The notes under the pieces: model-generated
What the model was told of the DNA's origin: nothing
The model's input: only the letters and a program-made list of their open reading frames with translations
Database searches by the model: none
Shown: piece after piece, positions 30,077 through 47,867 of the stretch
How positions within the stretch are numbered: the stretch's first letter is position 1
How the letters are laid out: each line of letters begins with the position of its first letter
Translations under genes and position numbers: made by a program
Assembly (NCBI GenBank): GCA_965214465.1
Contig: CBDCBX010000018.1
Span: 157,881-221,880, forward strand
Source of the DNA: Acidobacteriota bacterium
GTDB lineage: Bacteria > Acidobacteriota > UBA6911 > RPQK01 > CBDAPI01
Direction of reading: 5' to 3'
Length of the DNA stretch: 64,000 nucleotides

Positions 30077-31276
30077 TTGAAAACGCCGCAGACCGCCGGG
30101 CAGATCAAGGTCGTCGCCAGGGCAGCAGGCCTTCCCGTCGGGACCGGTCCTCTGGAAGACCTGGGCGTCTATGTGCATATCCCTTTCTGTGTCCAGAAAT
30201 GCCCTTACTGTGATTTTGTAACCGACCCTCTGCAGCCGGCTCCAAAGCAACGCTATCTGGAGGCCCTGGAACGCGAAATCCGTTCCTCTCCCTGGGCGGG
30301 GAGCCGCGTTTCGACCTTGTTCCTGGGAGGAGGCACACCTTCCGAACTGACCCTGGCGGAACTGGGCCGGCTGTTCGCAGCCATCCGATCCAGTTTCGAC
30401 CTGTCCAAACTCAATGAGGCGACGCTCGAGTGCAATCCCGGCACCCTGACCGCCAGCCAGGCTGACGCCTGGTTGCAACTCGGTTTCAATCGGATCAGCC
30501 TGGGAGTCCAATCCTTCCAGGATCGCCATCTGAAGCGGCTGGGGCGGGCTCACACCGCGGTCGAGGCAAGACGAGCCCTCTCCTTCATCCAGGACAGCGG
30601 GTTCAGGCGTCTCAGCCTCGATCTGATCTTCGCTCTCCCCGCTCAAGCACTTCCCGAGTGGGAGTCGGACGTAGCCGAAGCCCTTGACTTCGACCCGGGG
30701 CACATCTCCCTTTACCATCTGACTTTCGAGAAGGGGACGGAGTTCTTTGCGAGGATGCGGAGCGGAGAGCTGATTCCCCCCGACGACCACGTCGCCGCCG
30801 AGATGTTCGAGAGCGCCATCCGCCGGCTGGAATCCTGCGGGTACCGACAGTATGAGATTTCCAACTTCGCCAAACCGGGGCATGAGTGTCTTCACAACCA
30901 GCGCTACTGGCAGAACCGGCCCACGCTGGGCCTGGGTGTGAGTGCTGCGTCCTACATCGAGGGAGTCCGCTGGGCCAACGCCCGGCAGATCGCCACTTAC
31001 TCAGAAGCCGATTCCAACCCACCCCCTCTGGATTTTGTAGAGGCACTGAGTCCTCCAGAGGCTCTGGGTGAAGAAATTATGCTCCGACTTCGTACTGATG
31101 AGGGAGTCCACCTGGATCGGGTTTCCGCCAAGTTCGGGTTGGACTCGCCCGGCCCCTACGCTGAGAGGATTGAAAGGTTGATCGCACTCGACCTGATTTC
31201 GTGGCACGACCATCACCTGCAGTTGACCCGTGAGGGGCTGATGGCGGCGGACTCGGTCTGTATGGAGTTTTTGTAG
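30077..31276 (+). CDS. hemW: Radical SAM heme chaperone HemW
   Basis: YVHIPFCVQKCPYCDF, GGGTPS, YEISNF, HNQRYW; follows lepA. Confidence 0.92.
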   Translation: MKTPQTAGQIKVVARAAGLPVGTGPLEDLGVYVHIPFCVQKCPYCDFVTDPLQPAPKQRYLEALEREIRSSPWAGSRVSTLFLGGGTPSELTLAELGRLFAAIRSSFDLSKLNEATLECNPGTLTASQADAWLQLGFNRISLGVQSFQDRHLKRLGRAHTAVEARRALSFIQDSGFRRLSLDLIFALPAQALPEWESDVAEALDFDPGHISLYHLTFEKGTEFFARMRSGELIPPDDHVAAEMFESAIRRLESCGYRQYEISNFAKPGHECLHNQRYWQNRPTLGLGVSAASYIEGVRWANARQIATYSEADSNPPPLDFVEALSPPEALGEEIMLRLRTDEGVHLDRVSAKFGLDSPGPYAERIERLIALDLISWHDHHLQLTREGLMAADSVCMEFL

Positions 31277-31762
31277 GGGGGGCGGGATGGTCGGGACGAT
31301 CCTTCGGTTTTCACTATACCTTCAGGCTGAAAAGCGTCCGCGAAGGTCTCTCCAATGCCGATTCGACGCGCAGCTTCTTCCATGGCGCGAAAATCCATCA
31401 TAGACTTCCAGCTGACTAGCGGCTCCCGACGGGGATCGAGACCGTAGACTTTGATCCGTTCGCCGAGGGTCTCGAAAAACAGTTTCAGCAGTTGTCGTTT
31501 GTCCGCGAAGTCCGATTTATCAATCCGGGCGGAAACGACCTCGCCCAAGGTGTTGTTGAGATGAAGGATTTGCTTTCGAATCGCCTTGTGATGGGTCTTC
31601 TGACCTTCAAGCGTCTTCAACTTGGCCTCCAAGCGGTCTAGCTTTGATTGCTCGGAGTCTTTTCGTTGCCTTACTTCCAAGATCTTCTTCAAGACCATTT
31701 CCATCGAGAAATCGGCGTCCGCCGCGTAGAGATCAAGAAGTCTGCTCTCCTTCCGCTCCAGC
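31213..31762 (-). pseudogene. C-terminal coiled-coil remnant of a probable large serine recombinase, 5' part removed at an IS end
   Basis: The frame extends upstream of the called ORF as LERKESRLLDLYAADADFSMEMVLKKI...ADKRQLLKLF, resembling LSR coiled-coil tails; it reads through the att site and is cut at the IR at 31763. Confidence 0.6.
31269..31318. other. attL-like junction of the island (B arm + GG + P' arm)
   Basis: GTCGGGACGATCCTTC (31290-31305) is repeated at 47635-47650; 31295-31318 is 22/24 complementary to 47614-47637. Confidence 0.8.
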
Positions 31763-31836
31763 CCGTCCTATCCGAAAACTCAGCCGATTTGTAACCCACT
31801 GTGGGAGTTCGACTTGTAGGCGCGTACAATGGCGGC

Positions 31837-32898
31837 ATGAAAGCCGATACCTACCCGCTGCAGGTGCTACTCTGGGCCCTTTCAGGCTGGGTGAACCGAC
31901 ACCAGCAGGACGTCATCGCGTACTTGGTTGAGGAGAACCGGGTCCTGAAGGAGCAGATGAAGGGTCGTCGGCTTCGCCTGACCAACGAGCAGCGACGGCG
32001 ACTCGCCGCGAAGGGCAAGCGCCTTGGTCGGAAGACGCTCAATCGGGTCGCAACGATCGTGACTCCGGATACGATAATGCGATGGCATCGGCAATTGATA
32101 GCTCTCAAGTGGACCTGCGAATCCAAGAGGGTCGGCCGGCCTGGGCTCATGAAGAGGATTGCCGGCTTGATCGTGCGGATGGCCTGGGAGAACTCGGGCT
32201 GGGGGTATTGCCGGATCCAGGGGGAACTCCGGAAGCTCGGACATCGGGTCGCGACCAGCACGATAGCCAAGGTGCTCAAGGACAATGGGATCAAACCCGC
32301 GCCTGACCGGCCATCTTCTTGGAAGACTTTTCTGCAGGCCCATTGGGGCGAGATCGCCGGAATGGACTTCTTTACGACCGAGGTGTGGACGCCACGCGGC
32401 CTGAAGACCTACTACATCCTCTTCGCGATCGATTTGAAGAGTCGGAAGGTCCACTTCGCGGGAGCGACGCCGAATCCAAACGAATCCTTCATGGCCCAAG
32501 TCGCTCGTAACCTGAGCGATGCCTTTGACGGCTTTCTAACGGGGCACCGTTTTCTGATCTGCGACCGTGACTCGAAGTTTTCTGAACAGTTCAGACGGAT
32601 TCTCAAAGGCGCGGGTGTCGATGTGATCCGGACACCCATTCAGGCCCCCAACTGCAACGCGCATGCGGAGCGGTTCGTGCTGTCGATCAAATCTGAGTGC
32701 CTGCGGAGGATGATCTTCTTCGGAGAAGCCTCGCTGCGTCGGGCAATTACAGAATACCTGGATCATTATCATACCGAGCGAGCGCACCAGGGCCTGGGAA
32801 ACGATCTCATTGAGAAGCATGAAGTCACACCCGAGGGTGAGATTCGGTGTCGGGAACGACTTGGAGGAATTCTCAAGCACTACTACCGGGCCGCATGA
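31837..32898 (+). CDS. Integrase-core-domain (DDE) transposase
   Basis: WGYCRIQGEL HTH, MDFFT, LICDRDSKF, NAHAERFVLSIKSECL, YHTERAHQGL, RLGGILKHY. Confidence 0.92.
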   Translation: MKADTYPLQVLLWALSGWVNRHQQDVIAYLVEENRVLKEQMKGRRLRLTNEQRRRLAAKGKRLGRKTLNRVATIVTPDTIMRWHRQLIALKWTCESKRVGRPGLMKRIAGLIVRMAWENSGWGYCRIQGELRKLGHRVATSTIAKVLKDNGIKPAPDRPSSWKTFLQAHWGEIAGMDFFTTEVWTPRGLKTYYILFAIDLKSRKVHFAGATPNPNESFMAQVARNLSDAFDGFLTGHRFLICDRDSKFSEQFRRILKGAGVDVIRTPIQAPNCNAHAERFVLSIKSECLRRMIFFGEASLRRAITEYLDHYHTERAHQGLGNDLIEKHEVTPEGEIRCRERLGGILKHYYRAA

Positions 32899-32901
32899 GG
32901 A

Positions 32902-33245
32902 TGGAACTACTCAATCGCTCTGCGGTGATCGTAAAGCCACTTCGACCCTATCTCGAATGGGCCAAGGGAGACGACGCCGAGGGGCTTGCTGAATTAGTCT
33001 TTGAGAATCTACGACGTGAGCCGCATGTGTATCTCCTTCCTGAATACGAAGACCCCACGTCGCAGCAAGAGGTGCTGAAGGAATTTTGGCCAGCCATATT
33101 TGAGGCCATGTTGGCAGGCTGGGTGACGGACGAGGCGTTGTGGCCTAAGAACCGAACGCTAGGAATGTTCCAGAAGTGGTTCGAAATCCAAATGAGTTCG
33201 ATGGTTCAGGATCTCGACGGCTACACGCCTCTGGAGCTGATTTGA
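32902..33245 (+). CDS. Conserved hypothetical passenger protein
   Basis: LNRSAVIVKP..PYLEW...IFEAMLAGWVTDEALWPKNRT...WF; lies inside the IRs. Confidence 0.75.
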
Positions 33246-33306
33246 CCCAAAAGCGACAATGGAGTTGGCTCCGGAACCGTCTCGGCTGAGTTTTCGGATA
33301 GGACGG

Positions 33307-33445
33307 CCAAGCCACCCAAAGAGTTGTCCACATCGGGTTGAATCGCTGGTGCAGGGTCTGCAGCTGGTTCCGACTTCTCAGCTACCTTGCATGCGCTGAC
33401 AGTGAGGGACAAAAGGAACAAGCCGGGCAACAGGGTCTTTAACAT
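33307..33445 (-). pseudogene. Lipoprotein 5' fragment truncated by the element
   Basis: MLKTLLPGLFLLSLTVSAC lipobox-like signal; the frame runs into the IR at 33306. Confidence 0.45.
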
Positions 33446-33969
33446 CGCCGGTGGTTCCAAAAAGATCGGGAAATCGACCAAGAGAACGTGGTCTCCATTC
33501 GAAAAGCATGATAACAAAAGTGCAGCGATCACTACGATTCGGATAGTGTCAACACGCTGGGGAACGCACGCCGGGCCATTGTTTTTGAACTCACTCCGAT
33601 CGAGGAATTTCTTCCTCACAGCAATGTCGCCTTGACCAGTCGGTCGTACATCGTCACCAGCTAAGGTTTCAAGGGGAAATAGACCGCTCAGGGGACCGGT
33701 CGAGTCGGTCGCCGAGAGGGGCACTCCGTTCGGGCTCGCCCCCACTGCGTCCCCTCTCTCAGTCTTCAAGAACTCGAGGAGATCGTTTCCCAGGATCAGA
33801 TAGAACAACCTATAACCAGGTGGGTCACTTTTTCCTTGTCATTCCGATACCCGGTTGTCTTGCCTATGTTCCACTGTGGCAGCGATACGGCAATACCCCT
33901 GTTGGAGAAAGTCAACAACACTTCCCTGAAGAAGCACCCCCTGCTTGATAGAATCTGCGGACGGAAGAC

Positions 33970-34857
33970 ATGACAACCAATTCCATCCCCATCATCGACA
34001 CCCACCAGCATCTCTGGGACCTGGAGAAGGTGCGGCTGCCCTGGTTGAACCTGGAAGGCAAGACTGACGCCGAAGGACTGGATCGAAGCTTTCTTATGGA
34101 GGAGTTCCTTCACGCGGTTGAGCACGAGGCTGTCGTTGGCAGTGTCTACATGGAAGTCAATGTCATCCCAGAGGATCAGAAAAAGGAAGCCGAGTATGTT
34201 CTTGACCTCTGCCGAAGCGATGAGAACCCCATGCGAGCGGTAGTGATAGGCGGCTACCCGCACGATCCTGGCTTCCAAAGCTACATCGAAGCGCTGGCAC
34301 GAGAAGAATTCGTCAAGGGGGTCCGGACGGTTTTGCACGATCCCGATCGGCCGCAGGGGATGTGTCTGAGGAAGGAGTTCATCCGGGGCTGCCGGTTGCT
34401 GGGAGAACTGAATCTGAGTTTCGACCTGTGCATGCGTCCCGGAGAGTTGCAGGATGCCGCTCGACTGGTCGATCGCTGCCCACAAACCCGCTTCATCCTC
34501 GACCACTGTGGCAATATTTCGGCAATGTCTGAAGATGGGGAGTTGCGGCGGCAGTGGGAGCAGGGAATCCAGGAACTGGCCCACCGCGACAACGTGACCT
34601 GCAAGATCTCAGGAATCGTTGCCTCAGCTCGTTCCGACTGGCAGCCGGCGGATTTGGCCGATGTCGTTTCATTCTGTTTGGACAGCTTCGGCGAGGATCG
34701 GGTCTGCTTCGGAGGAGACTGGCCGGTCTGTACACTCCGGGCTTCCTACAGCCAGTGGGTCGATGCTCTAGAATGGATTGTCAGGGACCGATCGCCCGAG
34801 TTCAAACGGAAATTGTTTCATGACAACGCGCTGCGAATCTATCGATTACAGAGTTGA
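33970..34857 (+). CDS. Amidohydrolase_2 family protein (sugar lactonase-like)
   Basis: IIDTHQHLWD, ILDHCG, CKISG, FGGDWPV. Confidence 0.88.
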   Translation: MTTNSIPIIDTHQHLWDLEKVRLPWLNLEGKTDAEGLDRSFLMEEFLHAVEHEAVVGSVYMEVNVIPEDQKKEAEYVLDLCRSDENPMRAVVIGGYPHDPGFQSYIEALAREEFVKGVRTVLHDPDRPQGMCLRKEFIRGCRLLGELNLSFDLCMRPGELQDAARLVDRCPQTRFILDHCGNISAMSEDGELRRQWEQGIQELAHRDNVTCKISGIVASARSDWQPADLADVVSFCLDSFGEDRVCFGGDWPVCTLRASYSQWVDALEWIVRDRSPEFKRKLFHDNALRIYRLQS

Positions 34858-35650
34858 GTTCTCAGAGCAGCAACGGTCAGCCGTCAACGGTCAACCTCCC
34901 GTCCTCGCCTTCATCGTTCTGATCATCTCCTTATTGACGCCATCACTCTGGGCTGAAGTTCCCGGCCGCGTCACCTACCGGGACGGCAGTCCCTGTGCTT
35001 TTTGCTGGCTCACCATTGAGCTGCAGGATCGAAGCTTCAAGATGCGGGCCGATGGAGACGGCTATTTCGAACTGGAGATCGAAACCTCGGAGCAGATCAA
35101 GAGAATGAGAGCCCGGAATCTGCGCGGGGAGCGAATTGTGGAGGACGGCTTTCTGTTTCTCTTCCTTCACAGAGACAATCCTCAACTTGAGCCCGTCATC
35201 AAAGATCTCCGCAAGCGGCTTCAGACCTATCGGGTTTTCACCAGCAGCACGCTGGTTCAGCAGCTCATATCGGAGGACTGCTATTTCATCGTAGAGCGGG
35301 AAGTGTCCCTTTTCGACCGGGTGTCGAGATTTCGCTCGGTGGAAGTGGATCTGAGTAAGCTCGAGCTTCTCGAAGCTTGCAGCGAGGATACGCAGGCCTG
35401 CATTCGTCTACAGCCGGCCCGGGTCCTGGGCGAGAAGAACCGACTCGACATGGGTGGAGCCGTCGTGTTTTTCGACGGCAGGCACAAGGAACAGGTCCCC
35501 GGTCTACTCCACTCCATCGCCCTTCTGGCCCGGGCCTGCGGAAATCTAAAGACCCACGTGATGGCCCCGGAAGCCCCGTGTCCACCCGAAAAACTCCATC
35601 CAACCGGTGAGGAAGCCCGTGGACGCACCGCAGGCGGCAGATTTGAATGA
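34778..35650 (+). CDS. Hypothetical exported protein; 3' end replaced by element IR at 35578; start uncertain
   Basis: Hydrophobic signal-like stretch; the ORF runs into the IR. Confidence 0.45.
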   Translation: MSGTDRPSSNGNCFMTTRCESIDYRVEFSEQQRSAVNGQPPVLAFIVLIISLLTPSLWAEVPGRVTYRDGSPCAFCWLTIELQDRSFKMRADGDGYFELEIETSEQIKRMRARNLRGERIVEDGFLFLFLHRDNPQLEPVIKDLRKRLQTYRVFTSSTLVQQLISEDCYFIVEREVSLFDRVSRFRSVEVDLSKLELLEACSEDTQACIRLQPARVLGEKNRLDMGGAVVFFDGRHKEQVPGLLHSIALLARACGNLKTHVMAPEAPCPPEKLHPTGEEARGRTAGGRFE

Positions 35651-36160
35651 TCCTCTTCGGCGAGCACTTCGAACCACAATGAGAATTAGTGGACAGGCGT
35701 TTGGCTTTGGGTCTGAAGAAGCCGCCCAGACAGACCTTGCCTGTGTCGGACAGATGTTGAGGGAATGAGTTGGTTGTGGAACCTGAGTCCTACGCTGCCA
35801 CCCGTTCGTAGCGATGGTGAAGCCCACCGCAGATCGGAAACGAGATCAGCTTGGTTGGCGCATTTACCACTGCCGGTTTCTGTATTGGAATGGGTGTGTC
35901 ACGGTCCAGTCCCTGATGTGGCCGGCTGCAATGGTAGTACTGCTCAATGTACTCGCTGAGCAACCTGTTCAGGTGCCTTTCACTGAGCACAATGACGTGA
36001 TCGAGTAGTTCCCGGCGGAGAGTGCCGAAAAGCCTTTCTATATAAGGATTCTGCCAAGGACTTCGGTAAGCCGTTCGCACTTCTTCGATATTGCAGCTGT
36101 CCAGGAACTTCCGCACTCCGTGGCCGTAGATGCCGTCATTGTCACGCAACAAGTATCTAG

Positions 36161-37802
36161 CCCGGATTATGCAAGAACCGTAGTCCGGAGTTGAAAAACG
36201 ACTCGAGAAGTGGCTCAACTCGAAAGCGGACAGGTGTGACAGGCGGATTTGCGAAGAATATCGGTTGGCGAGGCGTTTGAAGTGGTTGGGGAGTGAATTT
36301 CAGACAGATCTGGGCCTGGGTGAGTATCGGAAGCGGTTTTTCGGGGAGCTGGGAGAGGCTAGCTGGAGTTGAGACGACTCAAGACGAGGTGGAAGAGGGG
36401 TTGTTCGGGAAAGGCTGAGGAAAGATGGACCCAGATGCGTCGAGTGGTTTGTCGGATCCGGGCCCCGATCTTGAGGACACGACGACGTAAGGTTTCGATT
36501 TCGAGCAGGGGGTCCCGTGCAGATAGTCGCGCAGGCGCACGAACATCTGGTAAGCCAGGGCATGCAGAAGGAGTCGAAACTGATTGGCCAGGAATCGATG
36601 ACAGCTGAGTCGGTCCATGCTCAGATGATTCTTGAAGGCCTTGATGAAGTTTTCGGTCTGTCCTCGGTTTGTGTAGTGGTCATAAAGTGATTGGGAGCAG
36701 AGATCGTCCCGGTTGGTGACCACAAAGCGACGATTGATCCCGCGCTGATCGACCTCCACTTTGACGATGACGCGACGAGATCGATCCCAGCTGTTGGCTC
36801 GATAAAGAAACTCGTCAAACTGACGCTGTTTTTCCTCCAGCTCAAGGAACCTTTCCCGAGTCGAATCCAGCAGGGGCTCGACCACTCGCTGCAGGCGAGG
36901 GTTTCGACTTAACCCAATGACATACTGGAGTTGATTCTCTTCAGCCTCACAGAACTCGTAGAGCCGCGGCGTGGCAAAGCCGCTGTCGGCCCGAATCTCA
37001 ATCTCGACATCCGTCCCCACTCCTTGTCGGATAGCCTCCACGACTCGCTTCAGAATGGGCACGATGTGAGAGGCAGCTCCCTTGTTGCCAGGTCTCAACA
37101 CGGCACACACCAGGTCTCCCGTGTCGGCATCGAAGATCAGCAAAGGATGCAGAATGTGGCTTCGGTAATACCCGTGGTAGAAGGAGAACTCCTGCTGGCC
37201 GTGGGTGTGGTCGTCGGTACTGTCCAGATCCAGGATGATCTTACCGGGACGTCTTTTCTTCAGGGAGCGCACATAACGGCCTAGCAGCCACTGGCTCAAA
37301 CGCATCAGATCCTTCCTGGTGACGGAGTTCTCCAAGCGGGAGAAAGTCGGCTGCGTGGCCAAATCCGGATCGCTCTCCGGCAACTGATCACAGACGGTTT
37401 TGAGCATCGGATCCGAGCGCAGCGTATCGGCGTCATTACAGTCTTCGTAGCCGGCCACGATCTGCAAGACTCGTTGTCGGATCAACTTCAACAGATCATG
37501 ACGAATGTAGCGTTGGTCTCGACTCTCCGAAATACACGAACTGAAGCCCTCGCAGAGCCGATGTTGCCGATCCACCGATCCAAACAACAACCATCCTGCG
37601 TCGGAAGTGAGGCTCCCCCCATCAAAACGCGCCGTGATCTTTCTGTGGCTGTGAAATGCAGGGTATTCTGGCAGACTGCTCTTAACATTGCCGTAGCTCC
37701 TGGTTAGGGTCTTGTTTGTGTAAACCCTTTTATATCAGAGAGCTACGGCTCTTTTTATGGGCCCAAATCTCACTCGGATTCAGATCTCATGCATAATCCG
37801 GG
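36161..37802 (-). mobile_element. IS1380 family element
   Basis: IRs CCCGGATTATGCA / TGCATAATCCGGG; 4-bp TSD CTAG (36157-36160 and 37803-37806). Confidence 0.92.
36359..37688 (-). pseudogene. IS1380 transposase with two frameshifts
   Basis: FDGGSLTSDAG, ILDLDSTDD..HGQQE, RADSGF, YTNRGQTENFIK, ANQFRL; frame breaks near 37650 and 36510. Confidence 0.85.
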
Positions 37803-38904
37803 CTAGGCTTCCGACCGAAGGGTGTGGCTTCTCGAAGCTGCTGAATCACCCATTCCATGGAGGGATGGTACGTCGTCGAGAAGTGGATCACCTTCCTGCG
37901 GCCATGTTCAAAGACAACAAATACATAGAGAAATGAGAAGCCGACCGTGATCACCGTAAAGAAGTCGATCGCCCATGAGACGTCTAGGTGGTTGTGCAGG
38001 AAGGGCAGCCAGTTCGTTGGATTGTCAGGCTTCTTGGGGCGGGACATGTACTTGCGGATCGTGTCGCTGCAAGGGGGATCATAGCCGAGCAGCCGCAACG
38101 TATCCTCGATTCGTTCGGCACTCCATAGAGGATTCTCTCGGCTCAACTTGCGAATCAGATCCCGCGTCTCCTTTGGCACGGGAGGCCGGCCGGGCCGGCC
38201 CTTCGACTTCCGGCGCCAGTAGAGACGGAAGCCTGTGGTGTGCCAGCGCTTCACGGTGGCGGGCTGCATTAGATGTGCCACCTGATGCCATTGATCCCAG
38301 ATCCTGGACAGCAATACCCAAAGAAGCCTGAAAGCACGGGTGAATCTGGGTCTCGGACGATCTTGCTCCACGATCCGATGCTTGCACGCGGCCAGCTGAC
38401 TCTCTGCCGCCAAGACTCGTGCCGCCAAAGTCGCCCGTGAGCTGAAGAACGCCGATAGAAATGTGCGGACGAATCCGGCAGCTTGCCCGAGGTCAGAAAT
38501 TGTCCTGAAGATGATCTGGAACAGGCAACGAATCTCTCTCATGGCCCGAAGGATACGAGGCCTTGAGCTCCACCTCAAGACTTGCGTAAATCATTGCTGT
38601 ACAAGGTGGACGGAATTTTTCGGGGGGACAACCCAGGAAAGCTCGCGCCTGGCCAAGCCTTTGATCGCGGGAACAACGTGCCTTTGCACGGCACACCTGG
38701 ACCACTACAGGGGCGCCTTCATCTGCCAGGGGGATACCGCTCCGCTAAAGACGGGTTGAGCCCCAAGAATTCTTCGGATCGCGCCGATTCTGAGGAAGCA
38801 ACAAACCAACTCCCCTGGCCGGTAGAGAGCAGGCAAAAATCGGTCCAGCACACCTGTCACGCCGAAGGTCGCGAGTCGCGGATCGGATGCCGCTGGCTCT
38901 CTGC

Positions 38905-40299
38905 TCAGGGGGCAAACTCGTCGGGGGGAAGTCCCACTTCCTCCCAGAGAAAACTGAAATCCACCGGATCCCGGCCCGCACCAGCGGATTCCCGGCGCTC
39001 CTCGACCTCGTAGCTGCGGAGAAGTTCCGCGACTTCGCGGCGACTTTGTGGGGACCGGATCGCCTGCCGTGGTGTCTTTCCTCTCAAAGCAGGAATCGGC
39101 TCATCTGCCCAGTTTTCGTAGATCCGGCGGTAGAGCCTTTGCTGGAACTCACTCCGTTCCGTCTTGGAAAGGCCCTCCAAGGGGTCCTCAGAGCGGCTGG
39201 GGGCCGTCTCGGGCTGGTGCCGGGTTTTCCATATGTGGCGCGGGTCACTAATCTCTCGGGTGATTTTCTCGACGGAATCGCCAGCGATTTCAGCCACCCA
39301 CTTATCTCCCGTTTCGGCACGTGCCGCCGTTCGGCTAAAGATCTCGAGGCGATCCTCTTTCCTGCGGCGGAGCGAATGGAGGACTCGAGACGAGCTGGCC
39401 TCTGGATCGTCCAGGCGCACCCAGGAGTCGTCGCCGTCTTTCCTCACGTCGGACTGACCTTTTAGAGCCTCTTCGAGACTTGCCCAATCTTTGACCCGAT
39501 AGTGCACGGTGGTCAGCAGGATCGGGTCGCCGGATGCGGCATCCACGATCCGTGGAGCCGGTCCGATCAGAACCGACAGCCACTTTTCGGTGACGCAGCG
39601 GCTGATCCAGGCGGGTTCGATGTTTCCCGCGGAGTCCCGCGGTCCCTCGAGTATCCTGCCACGAAGCTCCAGATATTGGAGCCTTCCGAAAGGATACAGA
39701 CATCCGCTGAGAATCCTGGGCTCGTTCGGCAAAACACGGGCTGCAAAGATGTCACCCTCTTTCAGGGTCCGCGAGGCTGACCGCTCCTGGACCCAGAACT
39801 TTTCCCGCTCCTCTGCCAGAGCCGATACGAGCCAGAACCCCCGATTCGGCTGGACTTCGACCACTTCGTACAGACCAAGGGGTGAGGCGGTCAAGGTTTC
39901 CAGGTAGCGGCGCTCGTCGACTTCCATCAAAGGACCGCCGTGACCGAGCACAAGGTCGGCAAAGCGAGGGTGCCGCTCTTGATCGTCTTCCGGCGATTGT
40001 CGTCCCTCGCACAGGACCCACTCGAACGCGTTCAACTGGAACATCTGGAGAAGATCATCAGGAAGAGCTTCCAACTCGCCCAGCTGTTCGGGCCCCAGTC
40101 CTGCGCCGTACTGGAACTCAATCGCGTCTCCGACCTCTTCACCATGGTGCTCCATCAGCCAATCGAGCGCTTTCGACTCCGCTCCTTCTGCCACCGAGCG
40201 CTCTCTCGCCGCCCCTTCATCGTGCCCGAGACAACATCTCTTGTATTTGCTGCCACTCCCGCAAGGACAAGGATCGTTCCGACCGATTTTCTTCATCAT
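38905..40299 (-). CDS. SEC-C motif protein with C-terminal DUF2384/MbcA-Xre-like segment
   Basis: KIGRNDPCPCGSGSKYKRCC; C-terminal WADEPIPALRGKTPRQA. Confidence 0.8.
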   Translation of the reverse strand: MMKKIGRNDPCPCGSGSKYKRCCLGHDEGAARERSVAEGAESKALDWLMEHHGEEVGDAIEFQYGAGLGPEQLGELEALPDDLLQMFQLNAFEWVLCEGRQSPEDDQERHPRFADLVLGHGGPLMEVDERRYLETLTASPLGLYEVVEVQPNRGFWLVSALAEEREKFWVQERSASRTLKEGDIFAARVLPNEPRILSGCLYPFGRLQYLELRGRILEGPRDSAGNIEPAWISRCVTEKWLSVLIGPAPRIVDAASGDPILLTTVHYRVKDWASLEEALKGQSDVRKDGDDSWVRLDDPEASSSRVLHSLRRRKEDRLEIFSRTAARAETGDKWVAEIAGDSVEKITREISDPRHIWKTRHQPETAPSRSEDPLEGLSKTERSEFQQRLYRRIYENWADEPIPALRGKTPRQAIRSPQSRREVAELLRSYEVEERRESAGAGRDPVDFSFLWEEVGLPPDEFAP

Positions 40300-40462
40300 C
40301 CGCTCTCCAGAACGAGCTTGCCCGAAATCCAACGCCGGATCAAGACGCAACAGTTCATCGATCCCAGAGTCTTGCCCCGTCTCTCATCCGCTTATTTGAT
40401 ACGAGACAGGCCTGAAGCGCGCCTGAGTGTGCTAGGTTGGATGGAGTTTTTCGGATGGACAC

Positions 40463-40854
40463 CTGTTATCAATCGATACTCGACCGGGAGGCTGTCGCCG
40501 CGATCCCTCCGCGACGCAGTGCACGGCTGAGTGAAAATGTGGACCCGCCTGCCTGGCGTGCGATGCGCGATGCCCATCTACGAGAAATAAGGAGGCTCGG
40601 TCGATATGAATGGCGCATCTCCAGTGGTTGCACCCGGCAAAGCCTCGCAGAGAATGCGATGTCGAGGTTCAAGACGTTGTTTGGGCCTAAGCTGTCGGCC
40701 CGAGGATTCGACAATCAACGGGTCGAGGCCATCATCAAATGTGAGGTGCTGAATCGTATGACAAATCGGGGCATGCCTGAGTCAGTGCGAATTCAATAGC
40801 AGTCACATACAAAGCCCGAAATCCGCGAGGTGATTGGAATTGTGCAACAACGCC
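40463..40854 (+). mobile_element. IS5 family (IS903 group) 3' remnant with right IR
   Basis: IPPRRSA...WRISSGCTRQSLAENAMSRFKTLFG...LNRMT..GMPESVR*; end GAATTGTGCAACAACGCC (40837-40854) resembles IS903-group IRs. Confidence 0.8.
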
Positions 40855-41090
40855 CGCCGGAGCCTCGGCTCGGACGCCTTTTGTGAACTCAGAATAGCCG
40901 TTGGCGAGTATCTCCAACTCGGAAGTCGAGCCGGAGTGGGACACCGCGTGCAGCGGTTTCTTAGCCCCCGACGTATACGTATCAGGTTTCCAGTTGGTCC
41001 CATAGGATCAAAGCCTTGTCTCGCAAGGGGCTGGCGCATAACATACGCGGTAACGATCTCATCTAGTTTCTTTAGTAGCAGATAGGACCA

Positions 41091-43706
41091 ATGGCTCAAG
41101 TACGCTGTCCGGAATGTGGAGCTGGACTTCCAGAAGGCAGCCCGGCAAGACTCTGTCCGAGGTGCCGGGCGACACTCGAAGAGAGCCTTCCGGACCAGTC
41201 CGATGTACCCACACTCACCACGCCTCTTCCACCAGACGAGCCTGTCTCTGGAGAGCCGATCAAGACCATGCTCCCCCTTGGTCGTCAGTTCGGCCACTAC
41301 CAGATCAATCGCCTGCTGGGGAAAGGTGGCATGGGAGAGGTCTATGAGGCGGAAGACCTGGACAGCGGCCGCGTCGTTGCGCTCAAGGTCCTCCGTGAGC
41401 GCATGGACTCAGAAAATGACCACCAGCGTTTCCTGCGGGAAGGGCGCCTGGCCGCCCAGGTCAGTCACCCCAACGTGGTCTTCGTCTTTGGCACCGAAGA
41501 AATCGATGGGCAGCAGGTCATCTCGATGGAGTTCGCTCCCGGAGGGACACTCGAGGAACGGGGACCGCTGCCGGTGACCGAGGGCGTGGATGCCGTCCTT
41601 CAACTCATCGCGGGTCTTGAAGCCGCCTCTTCAGTGGGAGTTCTGCACCGCGACATCAAGCCGGCAAACTGTTTCATAGACGCTGACGGCAGGTTAAAAA
41701 TCGGTAATTTTGGCCTTTCTATTTCTACCCTCGAGAGGCAGCAAAGCGATCGTTTCAAGGGCACACCGGCCTTTGCTTCTCCCGAACAGGTGCAAGGCAG
41801 AGAACTCAACATTCGAAGCGACATCTACTCACTGGGAGTCACCCTCTTCTACCTCTTGACTGGCAAGACTCCTTTTGATGTGACCGGTCTCAATGAGCTG
41901 CTCAAGAAGATCGTGACACAAGAGCCTGAGACTCCGCGGAAACACAGACCGGAGTTGTCCAAGTCGTTGGCAGCCGTTGTTCTCAAGTGTTTGTCGAAGG
42001 AGCCGGCTGATCGCCCGCAGGATTATGCAGAGCTGAATCGGCTTCTCCAACCCCACAGTTCGTCGGGCTTGCAGCCAGGTCGGCTGGGCGTTCGCTTCCT
42101 TGCGGGCCTCATCGATCTTCTGCTTGTCTGGGGGTTGCCCTTCTTGATAGTCGTTTTCGTGTGGGTTTTCCAGCGCGTCTTTGCAATTCGAATCCCCCCT
42201 GCGGGCAGAATAATTATATCCTTGTGGCTATTCGTCCTACCCATCTCTTATTTCGCCCTGTGCGAGTCTCTTTGGGGTTCGACCGTGGGGAAGCGCCTCT
42301 TTGGATTGAGAGTCATCGGGGCCGATGGCGGGAGGCCTGGCCTCGTGGTGGGGATCGGGCGCGCCTGTGCTTGGTTTGGCTTGTTGGTCATCCTGCCAGG
42401 CAGTTTTTTTCGCTTTTTCCTGGGACTTGGCATCGCTTTCTCAGTGGCTCGATCACGGAATGGCTGGGCGGGACTGCATGAGCTGATCACCGGCACTCGA
42501 GTTGTAAGGAGCGCCAGCGTCCGTCATCGAGTTGCGATAGTGACGGCGGCTGCACCGGCTGACACAACCAACTGGGACAATCTTGGGCCCTTTAAGATCA
42601 GGCGAACCCGGGACCGACATCCAGGCCAGGTCGTTGAGGGTCTTGACTCGAAACTTCAGCGAATGGTTTGGCTAAGAATCGTAACTGCGGAGACCCCAAT
42701 TGTATCGTCAGCTCGGCGAGATCTGTCGAGCCCAACTCGTCTGCGCTGGCTTGAAGGAAGGCGGGCGGAACCTAACTCTTGGGACGCATTCGAAAGGCCA
42801 AACGGAGAGACTTTCATACAGGCGACCACCCAACCTCGGAGTTGGTCAACCGTTCGTAGGTGGTTGCTGCAGATTGTGGCTGAGCTGGGAAGCGATTCTG
42901 AAGCACCCACACTACCGGTGCGGCTAGGGTTTAACCATCTCTGGGTAACAGAAGACAGTCGGCTTCGCATTCTCGACTTTCCATTAGATTTAGATCTTCC
43001 ATCCGAAGAGGATGGTTATGAAACCGGGCAGGTGAGAGAGGTACAGCGCCTGCTCTACGAGGTTGCCCATCGGGCCAAGTCTGGAACGCTGGACAGGCCA
43101 ACCGGTGCGAGCCCGTGGCCGCTTCACGCCAACGAATTCCTGCTGACAATCAAGAACGGCAGCTTTGAGGCCACGGAGCAGCTGTTGGCGAAATTGAGCG
43201 ATCTAAGCCAGTTTCCAGCCTATGTTACGCAGCGTCTTCGGCTGATTCAGATCCTCCCCTGCGTACTGTGGGGGATCATGTTTACCATTTTCGAATTTTT
43301 CTTTTTTTCAATCGGGGGCACCTGGCCCGCCATGGGTGACATCAAGTTGCAGCTCGCGATTCCGGTGCTTGTTCTGGGACAATTCTTTCCCGTGGCCCTG
43401 ATCTCGACACTTGCAGCTCCATTTCTGGGTGGCGGCTTGTCGTTTCCGGCACTCTCCTTGACTCTTGTGGACGAAAACAAACGCAGGGCCAGTCGCTGGC
43501 GGATCCTGGCTAGAACCGGCCTAAATTGGTTTCCAGCGCTGTGTTTTCCTGTCCTGTTTTACCTTTATCGCGCTGCCGATTGGGTCGCCGGCGTCCTGGG
43601 GTACTGTCTTGTGGCCGTGCTGTTGGGCGGAGCCTTGTGGACCGTCCTACATCCCAACCGAGGATGGGCAGACTACATTGCGGGTAGTGCCGTTGTTCGC
43701 CGCTGA
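41091..43706 (+). CDS. Ser/Thr protein kinase fused to RDD-like membrane domains
   Basis: LGKGGMGEVY, VALK, HRDIKPAN, NFG in place of DFG, GTPAFASPEQ; RFLAGLID..GKRLFGLRV..GLHELITGT (RDD) and a second C-terminal RDD-like unit. Confidence 0.88.
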   Translation: MAQVRCPECGAGLPEGSPARLCPRCRATLEESLPDQSDVPTLTTPLPPDEPVSGEPIKTMLPLGRQFGHYQINRLLGKGGMGEVYEAEDLDSGRVVALKVLRERMDSENDHQRFLREGRLAAQVSHPNVVFVFGTEEIDGQQVISMEFAPGGTLEERGPLPVTEGVDAVLQLIAGLEAASSVGVLHRDIKPANCFIDADGRLKIGNFGLSISTLERQQSDRFKGTPAFASPEQVQGRELNIRSDIYSLGVTLFYLLTGKTPFDVTGLNELLKKIVTQEPETPRKHRPELSKSLAAVVLKCLSKEPADRPQDYAELNRLLQPHSSSGLQPGRLGVRFLAGLIDLLLVWGLPFLIVVFVWVFQRVFAIRIPPAGRIIISLWLFVLPISYFALCESLWGSTVGKRLFGLRVIGADGGRPGLVVGIGRACAWFGLLVILPGSFFRFFLGLGIAFSVARSRNGWAGLHELITGTRVVRSASVRHRVAIVTAAAPADTTNWDNLGPFKIRRTRDRHPGQVVEGLDSKLQRMVWLRIVTAETPIVSSARRDLSSPTRLRWLEGRRAEPNSWDAFERPNGETFIQATTQPRSWSTVRRWLLQIVAELGSDSEAPTLPVRLGFNHLWVTEDSRLRILDFPLDLDLPSEEDGYETGQVREVQRLLYEVAHRAKSGTLDRPTGASPWPLHANEFLLTIKNGSFEATEQLLAKLSDLSQFPAYVTQRLRLIQILPCVLWGIMFTIFEFFFFSIGGTWPAMGDIKLQLAIPVLVLGQFFPVALISTLAAPFLGGGLSFPALSLTLVDENKRRASRWRILARTGLNWFPALCFPVLFYLYRAADWVAGVLGYCLVAVLLGGALWTVLHPNRGWADYIAGSAVVRR

Positions 43707-43715
43707 AACTACTAT

Positions 43716-43830
43716 CTTGGCTCCCCGGACGGGCAGCGTTTCCTGATGCTCAGGAAGGAGATAGAACCGGAACGCCCAGTTCACGTGGTGCTCAACTGGT
43801 TTGGAGAACTCAAGCGCCAGGAGGTGTTTT
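43716..43830 (+). pseudogene. C-terminal fragment of a kinase/TolB-like protein
   Basis: SPDGQRFLML...VHVVLNWFGELK, resembling the tail of Acidobacterial kinase-propeller proteins. Confidence 0.5.
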
Positions 43831-44055
43831 GTTCAATAGTCTAGGAATAGCGATCGTTTCCAGAACCGGCGCACAAGTGTCGCGAGTCCGAGCTTTTTTC
43901 CGAAACGTTACAGCCTGGTCACCCGTTGAAAGCGGGCGCGGTCCTTTTGAAACAAACTGGAGGGCTATCTTGTTAGCGCGTACTGGCCAAGAAAAGAGAG
44001 AGAACACCCCAACGTCGCAAGCTGTGGACGAAGGAGCAAAGCCACGGAGCACGTA

Positions 44056-45048
44056 ATGGAGATTTCAGGGTGGCATCTCTTCAGAATCGGAGCAAAATCG
44101 GAATGTGCTGCGGCCCTCGTCGTACTTGCGACCTCTCTCATTTCATGCGGCCCAGGATCGGACGTGTCGGCTCAGCTCTGGGATCTGGCCACGACTGGAT
44201 CTCCTGAAAAAATCTTTTCTGGCCCACAAAACCACAGTCGCCCCGTACTTCTGGTCGCGTTCTCACCCGGTGGCAACAGGATTCTCACTGTGGGCCATGC
44301 GAATTTTCTCAAAGTATGGGACATCTCTAATGCAAATCCGATCCACAGCTTGTGGATCCCCGGCTTTTATCACGCGCGAAATATGGCACGGGCCGCTTTC
44401 TCTGCCGATGGCTCAAGAATTCTGATTGCGGTCGATGGCAAAGTCGTGTGGACCTGGAATCCTGTCACGGGAGAGCAGGAGGAAACAGTCCTGGCAGAGA
44501 CCATTTCACACATTACTTTCTCAGCTGATGGCTCCCGCTGTATCCGGCGAGATGGTCAGGGCTTCACCGTCTACGACACCAGGAGTTGGGAAGTGGTTTG
44601 GAATGTTCCTGTACTCCACACCCATGGCCCAGTCATCCCTTCGGCAGACGGAAGCCTCGTGTTTGTAGACGGAACGCTATGGAACACTAACACCCGCGAG
44701 ATCAGAGAAATCCCCACCGGTTCGTATTCAGCGGCAACTTTTTCGTCGGACAGCTCTTGGCTGTTGATTGGTTACGAGAGCGGGGCCCAAATATGGAACT
44801 GCAAGAGCGGAAAACTGCAGCAGGCCTTTTCGGGACACAATGGCCGAGTCATATCGGTTGCGTTTTCTCCCGATGCCACCCGTGTAATCACTGGAGTCCG
44901 GGGCGGCACCGTCAGGTTATGGAATTCAGAGACGGGGGCTCTCCTCAAGACTTTTCCAAATCGAACTTGTCCTGCAAGATCAGTGGCCTTTTCCCCTGAC
45001 GGAAGGAAGATTCTTATTTCGGGTTGCGGCCAATGGAGAGGGACTTGA
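44056..45048 (+). CDS. WD40 repeat protein
   Basis: Repeated VAFSPDG/FSADG...LWD/WN units; GHNGRVISVAFSPD. Confidence 0.85.
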   Translation: MEISGWHLFRIGAKSECAAALVVLATSLISCGPGSDVSAQLWDLATTGSPEKIFSGPQNHSRPVLLVAFSPGGNRILTVGHANFLKVWDISNANPIHSLWIPGFYHARNMARAAFSADGSRILIAVDGKVVWTWNPVTGEQEETVLAETISHITFSADGSRCIRRDGQGFTVYDTRSWEVVWNVPVLHTHGPVIPSADGSLVFVDGTLWNTNTREIREIPTGSYSAATFSSDSSWLLIGYESGAQIWNCKSGKLQQAFSGHNGRVISVAFSPDATRVITGVRGGTVRLWNSETGALLKTFPNRTCPARSVAFSPDGRKILISGCGQWRGT

Positions 45049-45369
45049 TTTGGACTCCTGTGTGCCCGTTCGGCTTCAATCTCAAAGAGGTTCCGTAACG
45101 ACGTCCTCAGAAATTCACTGGCACATAAATCTCATGTCCATATCTATTTGGGTTGATGGTGACATCGACAGCCCTTTTCAAACGGCACCACTGCCAAACC
45201 GGCCTCGGGACCCGGATGATCGACTGGGAGCCTGATCCGGGTCAAGCCCTCGGGCAAGATCGCCGCCACGGTGGTGCAGACCCGCCCGGGCCAGTTTGCG
45301 GCGCTGCCGGTGGCGGCGCTGCAAACCCTGAGGTCCATCTCCTGTTGCTGCCGGGCCCCATCGTCCCGT

Positions 45370-45500
45370 CTTCTCCTAGGCCCGGGCCGAAACGCGACGT
45401 AGGAGCCGTCGGGTGAACAGACAGCAAGCCTGTCTGAGTGATCTCCGGTCAGTTCTCTTCGGTTGCTCCCGTCCCCATCCATGATCTGTAGTCCGGTTCT
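45370..45500 (-). pseudogene. TolB/PD40 repeat fragment
   Basis: IMDGDGSNRRELT...CSPDGSYVAF. Confidence 0.45.
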
Positions 45501-45638
45501 CTGGGTTCGAGTTATGCTGGGTTTAAAAACACCAGACGATGCCGCACAACCGAGTCATCCTGGGCCTCAACCCGGGAAGAATCGACTGCTAACCCGGTCC
45601 GTCAGAATTCCGAGGCAGGTGAAAGCCCGTCCCAGTCG

Positions 45639-46901
45639 TGACCTTACCCCCTGAAACGAGTCCAGGTTGAGTTTTAGTAACTGGACGTAGTAAGGAGGTA
45701 ACAATGGCACAGAAAAAACACACCCCGGAACAGATCATCCGCAAGCTGAGGGAGGTCGAGGTGGCCCAGGCTCAGGGGAAGATGATTGCTCAGGCCGTGA
45801 AACAGATTGGCGTGACGGAACAGACTTTCTACCGCTGGCGCAAAGAATACGGCGGTATGCGGGTAGACCAGGCCAGACGGCTCAAAGAGCTGGAGAAGGA
45901 GAACCTCAGGCTGAAGCGACTGGTGGCCGATCTGTCCCTGGATAACCAGATTCTCAAAGAGGTGACGGAGGGAAACTTCTAAGCCCGGCGAAACGACGAC
46001 GAGCTATCGAGCATGTTCGCTCGAAGCTGGAACCGGAAGTGGTGTCGGAGCGTCGGGCTTGCCGGGTCTTGGGTCAGCCTCGTTCCACCCAGCGCCGTGA
46101 GCCGAAGATTGCAGAGGACGAAGATGAGTTGGTGGCACGGATGACTCAGCTGGCCAGCGAATACGGCCGTTATGGGTACCTTCGGATCACGGCTCTACTG
46201 AGACGGGAAGGCTGGCAGGTGAATCACAAGAGGATCGAACGACTGTGGAGGCGAGAAGGCTTGAAAGTACCGGCCAAACAGCCCAAGCGGCGACGTTTGT
46301 GGTTGCACGACGGATCCTGCATTCGACTGCGGCCGGCCTATCGAGACCATGTTTGGAGTTACGACTTTGTGCAATCGAGAACTCACAACGGCCGGGCTTT
46401 CCGGATGTTGACTTTGATGGATGAGTACTCCAGAGAGTGTCTGGCGATTGAGGTCCAGAGAAAACTCAACAGCTCGTCGGTCCTCGAGAAACTGGGAGAG
46501 CTCTTTGTCCAGAGAGGAACACCCGAGCATCTTCGATCCGACAACGGGAGCGAGTTTACGGCCAAGGTTGTCAGAGAGTGGCTGGCTCGGGTGGGAGTCG
46601 GGACGCTTTACATCGAACCGGGAAGCCCCTGGGAGAATGGATATATCGAGAGTTTCAATGGAAAGCTCAGAGACGAACTGCTGAACCTCGAGATCTTCGA
46701 CACTTTGCTGGAGGCGAAGGTTTTGATTGAACGCTGGAGAAGGGAGTACAACCAGATTCGACCCCATAGTTCCCTCGGTTACCGACCGCCAGCACCGGAG
46801 GCTCACTGGGTTCCGCCACCGTTGATTTCACGGCTGCAGGCTACCGGAAATGGGCCCGCGACCCTAACATAGAGAGTGGACTCGGTTGTGGGGTTGGGTC
46901 A
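45639..46901 (+). mobile_element. IS3 family element (IS407-like), apparently intact
   Basis: TG...CA imperfect IRs TGACCTTACCCCCTGAAACGAGTCCA and TGGACTCGGTTGTGGGGTTGGGTCA; orfA/orfB. Confidence 0.9.
45704..46872 (+). CDS. IS3 transposase OrfAB via -1 programmed frameshift
   Basis: orfA HTH 45704-45982; slippery G-GGA-AAC at 45970-45976; orf[29 protein letters not shown]. Confidence 0.92.
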
Positions 46902-47099
46902 TCATCTTAGCGCATCTCGACACCAGGTGATGACGCCCTCCAGATTCACATGCGTCGTCGTCAGCCTCTCCGTCGGCGTTCTTGCCGGCTTTGGGATCGC
47001 GTTCTTTCTCGGTGCTATGAAGTTTCTGGTAGGCACAACTACTACGATGCCTATCTGAGCCTGCAGGAGAAGTGGAATAACGGTGATGCCGCTATGTAC

Positions 47100-47325
47100 A
47101 CGATTCAGCTCTGGGGCGACAAGACTGTCGGTCTCCCCATGCTTACACATTGGGCGGCGCGCACGCGCTTCTTAAGGAAGATCGCATCGGGTCTCTGGAA
47201 ACAGGAAAATACGCAGACTTCATCGTGCTGGATCGTAACCTGCTGGAGATTCCCGTTGACGACATTAGCGAGAGCGAGGTGCTCAAGACTGTGTTCAATG
47301 GAAAGGTCGTTTACGACCAGACAGG
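47100..47325 (+). pseudogene. Amidohydrolase_3 C-terminal fragment
   Basis: IGSLETGKYADFIVLDRNL...VLKTVFNGKVVY. Confidence 0.7.
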
Positions 47326-47613
47326 ATGTGGCCTTCGGAAACTTCAGCTGATAGGTGGCAATAAACTCGTCAACCCGTCCCCAAACACTGCCTCCCGGTT
47401 TCGTTGATATCACGATCCTGATAGCGGGCCGCGGCGGCAAGGGACGCCTCCATGAGGCCTTGTCTCGAAACTCTACCCGGGCGGTCTGGAACCGAAATCC
47501 CTCCGAAACAACAGGAAACAGAGTCCAAGAAAAACCTAATCTCGGAGAGCCGAGTCCCTTCTAAGCTTTTCAAATAGAGCAACTTACGCCGATCCAGAAC
47601 TTGCTTCACCCCT

Positions 47614-47663
47614 TATAGTGAAAACGGAAGGATAGTCGGGACGATCCTTCCGAATACACATGA
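47614..47663. other. attR-like junction of the island
   Basis: TATAGTGAAAACGGAAGGATAGTC-GG-GACGATCCTTCCGAATACACATGA. Confidence 0.8.
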
Positions 47664-47727
47664 GTTCTGGGAAGGTCCTAGCCGCACCGAGCCTTCTGAA
47701 AAGTATATTGGATCTTTAAAGTTGGTC

Positions 47728-47867
47728 CCGACCAGTTTCAAGCCGGAACGGATGGGCCGGATTCCCGAATCCATCACCTGCAAACCCGCCTGCAACCCCT
47801 TTTCGGCGTCACAGACGCAGGCCGTGTCCAAAAGCCTGAGACGTTGTATCAGCTCTGTCCTGTGCAT
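47728..47867 (-). pseudogene. RraA/HMG-aldolase family 5' fragment, cut at an att-like site
   Basis: MHRTELIQRLRLLDTACVCDA...MDSGIRPIRSGLKLVGT, then an abrupt switch to AT-rich unrelated sequence. Confidence 0.7.

Follow-up and report, generated by a model that had tools for sequence, protein, structure and literature searches.

Probable relics of two insertions of one large serine recombinase element family beside hemW in an Acidobacteriota genome

The stretch analysed here (the window) is 64,000 nt of an Acidobacteriota bacterium genome, positions 157,881 to 221,880 of contig CBDCBX010000018.1. In it, the gene hemW is followed by an inverted-repeat arm, the remains of a large serine recombinase (LSR) gene and an insertion sequence (IS), and a matching arm lies at the far end of a further 16.4 kb. 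A first interpretation made from the letters alone (the sequence-only reading) took these 16.4 kb for one island, built by a single LSR integration, whose ends rebuild the palindromic attachment site of the element (attP) and whose recombinase was later truncated. We find support for the attachment site and the truncated recombinase, whereas comparison with related genomes points to a different pairing of the ends. The features on which the argument depends are the following, in window coordinates.

30077-31276, plus strand: hemW (Radical_SAM and HemN_C domains by Pfam), the host gene left of the insertion
31213-31762, minus strand: C-terminal remnant of an LSR (P0001), equivalent to residues 406-587 of the intact protein (97% identity to P0002, 87% to P0003)
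31277-31292: deduced host (B) half of attL, in the spacer from hemW to the Zn-peptidase gene of relatives (the homology of relatives ends at about 31270-31275; divergence of the P0003 tail)
31293-31294: central GG of attL, inferred crossover dinucleotide (symmetry centre of the arms)
31295-31318: deduced P' arm of attP, encoding the last conserved recombinase residues (22/24 complementary to 47614-47637)
31763-33306, plus strand: IS-a, with perfect 25-nt terminal inverted repeats (repeat search, Pfam)
31801-32898, plus strand: IS-a transposase open reading frame (ORF; rve, rve_3 and HTH_21 by Pfam)
47449-47613: conserved non-coding right end of the element family (86-90% identity to C9:4656-4818 and C21:387807-387994, on two other contigs of the genome)
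47541-47554, minus strand: terminator-like hairpin (one found against 0.7 expected, weak alone)
47614-47637: deduced P arm of attP, right end of an element copy (arm complementarity and arm copies across the genome)
47638-47639: central GG of the right-hand site (arm symmetry)
47640-47735: outer arm (P''), about 70 nt of flank and a short comM-like stub (shared with G002:C3 and partly with C17:14774-14855 of this genome)

A rebuilt attP and the remains of its recombinase

As first described, a 16-bp sequence occurs in two exact copies, at 31290-31305, which is 13 nt after the end of hemW, and at 47635-47650. The two other matches in the window, at 40268 (minus strand) and 62145 (plus strand), have two mismatches each and no wider similarity. 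By our own arithmetic about 0.5 exact 16-mer repeats of any kind are expected by chance in 64 kb, so that the direct repeat is weak in itself and the main weight falls on the palindrome and its context. A repeat search extends the direct repeat at both sites to 30 nt (83%) and returns inverted arms of 34 nt at 31285-31318 and 47614-47647 (85% complementary). Within these, the 24-nt arms 47614-47637 and 31295-31318 are complementary at 22 of 24 positions around a central GG, as the sequence-only reading had stated. Between 30500 and 48500 only three inverted pairs reach 22/24 or better, the other two being IS terminal repeats, and 20 dinucleotide shuffles of this interval gave none that good. 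With about 50 bp, an imperfect palindrome and a central dinucleotide, the rebuilt site has the form of an LSR attP.

The remnant ties this site to a recombinase. The frame that had been placed at 31213-31762 is real, although its open extent is 31213-31764 on the minus strand (183 residues). A Pfam scan of the remnant matched no domain, and a search among longer proteins returned P0002 (587 aa; 97% identity over 182 residues, 406-587) and P0003 (566 aa; 87% over 160 residues). These are the full-length homologues that the sequence-only reading had anticipated: both have Resolvase, Recombinase and Zn_ribbon_recom domains (PF00239 at E 4e-26 and 5e-24; PF07508 and PF13408 likewise, neither of which is in the window copy), and the nearest solved structure to P0002 is the SPbeta prophage integrase (E 4e-19), with the TP901-1 catalytic domain at 6e-12. 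By homology, the remnant is the C-terminus of a true LSR.

The tail of the protein records where copies have integrated. The recombinase frame crosses attP (31213-31318 with 47606-47637), and the final 26 residues of the remnant are read-through into host DNA, antisense to hemW. P0002 retains this tail complete, so the intact gene occupies the same site in the genome that encodes it, while P0003 is conserved through the part that the P' arm encodes and departs just after the GG (within about 5 nt to its left, inferred from codons). The tail after the core codon thus has 26 residues at hemW, a predicted 10 in the excised form and 6 in P0003. The left junction at hemW itself is real.

In this genome, the rest of the gene is gone. 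Its first 405 codons were not found in any of the 21 contigs, which hold only residues 406-587, and the N-terminal catalytic domain with the serine nucleophile is present neither in the window copy nor, for this gene, elsewhere in those contigs. Because the window copy has no catalytic, Recombinase or zinc-ribbon part, it is a relic of an LSR rather than a working member, and it is immobile here. The other LSR genes of the genome share only 24-27% identity. Among 40 relatives we found no close homologue (best 33-48%, in G002), and in metagenome, genome and viral contigs no close relatives of the locus, the one match, from a metagenome, having 23% identity. The tallies over these 40 relatives and over the 75-76 genomes of the order, as well as the comM search below, include the unpublished genome G012, on which no claim rests.

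IS-a abuts the remnant at 31763, at codon 405/406 of the LSR gene, in keeping with the earlier suggestion of a later truncation. No direct repeat was seen to flank it as a target-site duplication, the duplication length of this family not being established, and a comparison with the C17 copy was uninformative on this point. The missing direct repeat fits an IS-mediated deletion or inversion, without proving either. Contigs of runs X12 and X13 match 31267-31763 without a difference and then continue for 1165 and 1481 nt that are unlike the IS, which is not present at this place in them. Both would thus carry the uncut LSR gene. Sequencing runs from sponge, seawater and sediment shared only small fractions of the query words, and no conclusion is drawn from them.

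An inverted repeat at both ends of an IS-rich stretch could also be read as the terminal repeats of a DDE-type or composite transposon. We give this reading a negligible probability, as no target-site duplication lies outside the arms, the left arm is inside the LSR reading frame, copies end at a shared GG rather than at an outer terminus, and no transposase is tied to the ends.

Which ends belong together

Synteny in the genus separates the two sites. We searched eight genomes of the genus around hemW, of which six matched the hemW end and five could be anchored (G008 could not). In all five anchored relatives, a Zn_peptidase_2 gene follows hemW after 38-200 nt. The homology of our genome (G000) to these loci stops at the hemW stop codon, at C18:189150-189155 on the contig of the window, and resumes on another contig at C9:4833, 16 nt past a P arm and its GG, with the next syntenic gene starting from C9:9354. 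The two unaligned stubs together with the GG come to about 35 nt, where G001 has 37 nt. Such a stop and resumption, with so little difference in length, argues for a clean insertion with attL in the window and attR on C9. Hybrid attL and attR sequences around a site that is uninterrupted in relatives were thus found for the window attL and the C9 attR, and not for the pair 31290/47635. From these comparisons, the attL at hemW apparently pairs with the attR on C9 and not with the site at 47635.

We therefore put at roughly 80% the probability that the window holds relics of two insertions of one LSR element family around a mosaic interior scrambled by transposons, and not one island. Insertion 1 would have entered the spacer between hemW and the Zn-peptidase gene, leaving attL at 31277-31318 with the LSR gene reading leftwards through the P' arm into host DNA, and its attR, with the conserved 165-bp right end, would now lie on C9 beside the Zn-peptidase gene. 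An IS would have landed in codon 405/406, and the first 405 codons (catalytic serine, recombinase and zinc ribbon domains) would since have been lost, unrelated chromosomal DNA now following the IS. The right-hand site, 47614-47664, would stem from another copy and be the older relic, with GG linking its P arm to an arm that is a good half-site in its own right. Since both relics would come from one family, any P' arm and any P arm rebuild the family attP, which accounts for the palindrome even if the 16.4 kb are no single island. In LSR recombination, dimers bound to attP and attB come together in a synapse, both strands are cut at the central dinucleotide, one pair of subunits turns by 180 degrees and the ends are rejoined; intact relatives of this element would do the same at the central GG, cutting with the catalytic serine.

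The alternative closest to the sequence-only reading is a single LSR element, later filled with IS copies, that entered a site composed of the hemW-side arm and the sequence from 47640 onward. The exact 16-bp repeat, the 22/24 arms, the contiguous assembly between the sites and the outer arm at 47640, a good half-site, all agree with it. We nevertheless consider it very improbable: the gene that succeeds hemW in the five anchored relatives sits on C9 past another right end with no flanking DNA lost, and the flank of the right-hand site is next to hemW in no relative and lies elsewhere in G003, G005 and G006. The empty site that it predicts, hemW joined to 47640 onward, was seen in 0 of the 75 other genomes of the order, which is weak evidence alone because spacers are not conserved. 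Furthermore, the right junction recurs in one piece with its flank in another species and on C17, and the interior has chromosomal orthologues, as detailed below. The proposals of a single integration and of an empty site in relatives with these boundaries thus find no support.

Several observations pull against two insertions. The outer arm at 47640-47664 is more half-site-like than the C9 flank, and together with the hemW-side arm it forms the better small palindrome (7/8 inner positions, by eye), which is what the pairing within a single island predicts. The relatives are other species (77-89% hemW identity) with unconserved spacers, and no empty site of the same species was seen. The interior of insertion 1 is untraceable, as the 5' part of its LSR gene is missing and C9 begins 4.8 kb before its attR, so that the route of rearrangement is conjectural. 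Finally, the IS-a junctions rest on one assembly, though contigs of X9 span both.

This last point bears on a possible misjoin of C18 inside the IS at 31763-33306, in which case the true order would be hemW, attL, the cut LSR gene, the IS, the rest of the element, attR and the Zn-peptidase gene, with no mosaic. The genome is very rich in IS copies and C9 begins close to its attR, both of which would favour such an artefact. It is nonetheless very improbable, given that the sole other full copy of IS-a in the assembly is 94.7% identical and hence distinguishable, that the X9 contigs cross both IS-a junctions (30888-31818 and 32795-33709) without a difference, and that the 5' part of the LSR gene is in no contig.

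Separately, C9:242-1192, 3.5 kb inside the right end on C9, holds a primase-polymerase-like ORF with an NrS-1 polymerase helical bundle domain, which may be cargo of the hemW insertion.

The right-hand site has a history of its own. The copies on C9 and C21 share a right end of about 165-190 bp with 47449-47637 (86-90% identity), and a 1-nt indel in one of them argues against coding. The hairpin at 47541-47554 lies just beyond the stop codon of the excised form and is kept in three right-end copies. From 47561 to 47664, the junction and its flank are 85.6% identical over 104 nt to G002:C3, and a further 27 nt (47704-47730) are identical. In G002, a sister species, this right-hand unit leads into a 5'-truncated comM (C3:317295-318716), and C17:14774-14855 of our genome holds an 82-nt version of the junction and flank. 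Against the comM genes of G006 and G005, which look intact, similarity sets in only some 95 nt past the outer arm, which means that the arm is not native comM sequence. With the queries used, no comM was detectable in our genome beyond a stub of about 30 nt (47704-47735), and no unoccupied copies of the outer arm (at up to 6 mismatches) were found in it beyond the window and C17. The DNA upstream of the right-flank gene in G003, G005 and G006 is either IS sequence or without a match in G000. The outer arm, 47640-47664, is itself a good half-site. The right-hand site represents an old unit that more than one species carries, while the insertion at hemW differs from strain to strain.

For this site alone, we see a substantial though less than even chance that it is the unrecombined attP of a relic without its LSR gene, rather than an attR formed where the target resembled attP. 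Between the outer arm of G002 and the reverse complement of the P arm, 19/24 positions agree (by eye), and neither the arm nor the roughly 95 nt beyond it is native to comM as found intact in G006 and G005. On the other side, no LSR coding remnant was found beyond the outer arm, where the frame is full of stops and bears no likeness to P0002. Moreover, LSR transposons favour targets similar to their own joint, and such a target would look no different here.

In G002, a P arm with its GG also abuts a 53-nt fragment of the comM P-loop (locus L020, G002:C5:201495-203317), and a second full-length LSR (582 aa, 32% identity to P0002) ends about 50 nt further on. The gene comM may thus be a shared landing site of two LSR families.

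A mosaic interior and a dispersed arm family

Between IS-a and the conserved right end, the window contains the following.

33307-47448: mosaic interior, not shown as element cargo (Pfam, repeats, orthologues)
33912-33939: solo terminal repeat resembling that of a miniature inverted-repeat transposable element (MITE; repeat search)
33970-35650: amidohydrolase and neighbouring ORF (Pfam)
About 35578-38635: IS-b, split by an IS1380-like copy (repeats)
About 36158-37812: IS1380-like copy (DDE_Tnp_1_4; repeats, Pfam)
38905-40350: SEC-C-motif protein (Pfam)
40435-40462: solo IS-b end (repeats)
41091-43706: Ser/Thr kinase with RDD domain (Pfam)
44056-45048: WD40 protein (Pfam)
About 45645-46896: IS3-family IS (repeats, Pfam)
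47317-47373: IS256-like fragment of 57 nt (sequence comparison)

As the sequence-only reading had it, IS elements are confined to the space between the two sites: ORFs with transposase domains lie inside 31763-46896, and none was found among the 28 scanned ORFs of at least 230 aa outside the interval. A view of the interior as cargo fares less well. The stretch 33970-35577 has orthologues at 76-78% identity in G003 and G006, at a distance from hemW that amounts to 220 kb in the latter, and the kinase and WD40 stretch has a partial match (74%) only, in G005. The IS1380-like element has 57 copies in the genome (at least 98% identity over at least 1600 nt), which points to a recent burst. GC content is 0.54-0.60 inside and 0.57-0.61 outside, with no sharp boundary, and no structured RNA was matched in Rfam at E up to 0.1 between 29000 and 49500. 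Judged by these matches, the interior appears to consist mainly of chromosomal genes and IS copies rather than cargo. A stretch of about 230 bp at 33614-33847 is repeated 10-40 times in G001, G002 and G006 (70-82% identity), with one partial second copy in our genome.

The arms belong to a wider family. At up to two mismatches, our genome has four sites with the arm motif (the two in the window, C9:4791 and C21:387970), and BLAST returned two more, C17:14774-14855 and, at C17:302073-302114, a variant palindrome; the arm of P' type is single in it (31295-31318). A scan of 76 genomes of the order returned the motif in 9, ours included, against 0 matches for a reversed control. Across the genus, we count 13 arms of P type, in four genomes, and 2 of P' type; inward of the arm, the similarity between the element copies extends over no more than about 240 bp. 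The GG recurs at the junction on C9 and, of the remaining 12 right-end junctions, at 10.

What lies across these junctions differs. Six of the 13 P-type arms face the inner side of a 28-nt terminal repeat with 5 nt between, three a P''-type arm, two the comM P-loop fragment (beside the second LSR in G002), one the variant palindrome and one the Zn-peptidase flank. The 28-nt repeat has 24 copies in our genome, which three times form inverted pairs about 183 bp apart (C18:9835/10018, C10:6545/6727 and C17:323500/323682), and the window copy, with its subterminal sequence, is at 33886-33939; the paired repeats look like a MITE of about 211 bp. All six junctions with this repeat have a fixed offset, five through GG and the C21 copy through GC, and the 5-nt spacers that separate this dinucleotide from the repeat agree with different variants that occur unoccupied. 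This suggests that the LSR family may have integrated repeatedly into a MITE-like repeat. The pair in G005, by contrast, is a duplicate of a larger repeat.

Taken further, these patterns could describe an LSR family with relaxed or multiple targets and a GG crossover, using MITE-like subterminal landing pads that may spread half-sites, in which the frame through attP gives each integration a different C-terminal tail that could affect activity or directionality. We regard this broader picture as unlikely on present evidence, and offer it as a speculative proposal.

Two other loci with arms deserve mention. The right end on C21 (L044, C21:383000-388030 of our genome), whose junction dinucleotide is GC, lies just downstream of glmS, and on its upstream side stand IS256-like and DDE_3 transposase genes together with a second LSR, decayed and carrying two in-frame TGA codons. 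In g26, another genus of the order (L052-L056 and L061-L064), an arm variant with three mismatches occurs 1-6 times in five of six genomes with both flanks conserved, and may be a repeat family of its own.

Relation to known LSR systems

The comparison with relatives yields a candidate pair, namely the intact 587-aa P0002 with the deduced attP and the attB deduced in the hemW / Zn-peptidase spacer. Thousands of LSR/att pairs have already been catalogued, so the gain is modest. Of more general use, in an IS-rich genome a pair of att-like sites from the same family does not have to mark the ends of a single island, and it was the synteny of relatives that corrected the pairing here. In a literature search that covered sources other than the supplementary LSR tables of PMC10083194, no studied LSR of this lineage was found.

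Among LSRs, those with several targets offer the nearest comparison. Multi-targeting LSRs were described by Durrant et al. 2022 (PMC10083194), whose account of them sets the criterion at more than 3 target gene clusters per 90% cluster and places DUF4368 in most of that clade; P0002 and P0003 have no match to DUF4368. Like multi-targeting LSRs and like TnpX and TndX, the near-identical recombinases P0002 and P0003, in the same 90% range, are found at different sites, and the right ends here join at least four kinds of flank. Two integration sites are shown for the close LSR relatives P0002 and P0003, with no LSR identified at the other junction types. TnpX and TndX are LSR transposases. Compared with the multi-targeting LSRs, the core here is GG, and many of the junctions may be old relics rather than independent integrations.

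In the myxophage Mx8, attP is located within the gene of the tyrosine integrase IntP. There, as here, the 3' end of that gene is altered on integration, although Mx8 IntP belongs to a different recombinase superfamily and, in the present case, the change is limited to the final 6-26 residues and has no demonstrated effect.

With the established LSRs (SPbeta SprA/YokA, TP901-1, A118, Bxb1 and phiC31), the intact homologues share the same three domains and a long C-terminal region, and the rebuilt attP shares the imperfect palindrome of about 50 bp with a 2-bp centre. They differ from them in that the frame runs through attP, giving tails of 10 (excised), 26 (hemW) or 6 (P0003) residues, and similarity to the SPbeta integrase is distant (E 4e-19), the window copy being without every catalytic part. 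The element is thus an LSR integrative element of a known kind, of which the window preserves a dead relic.

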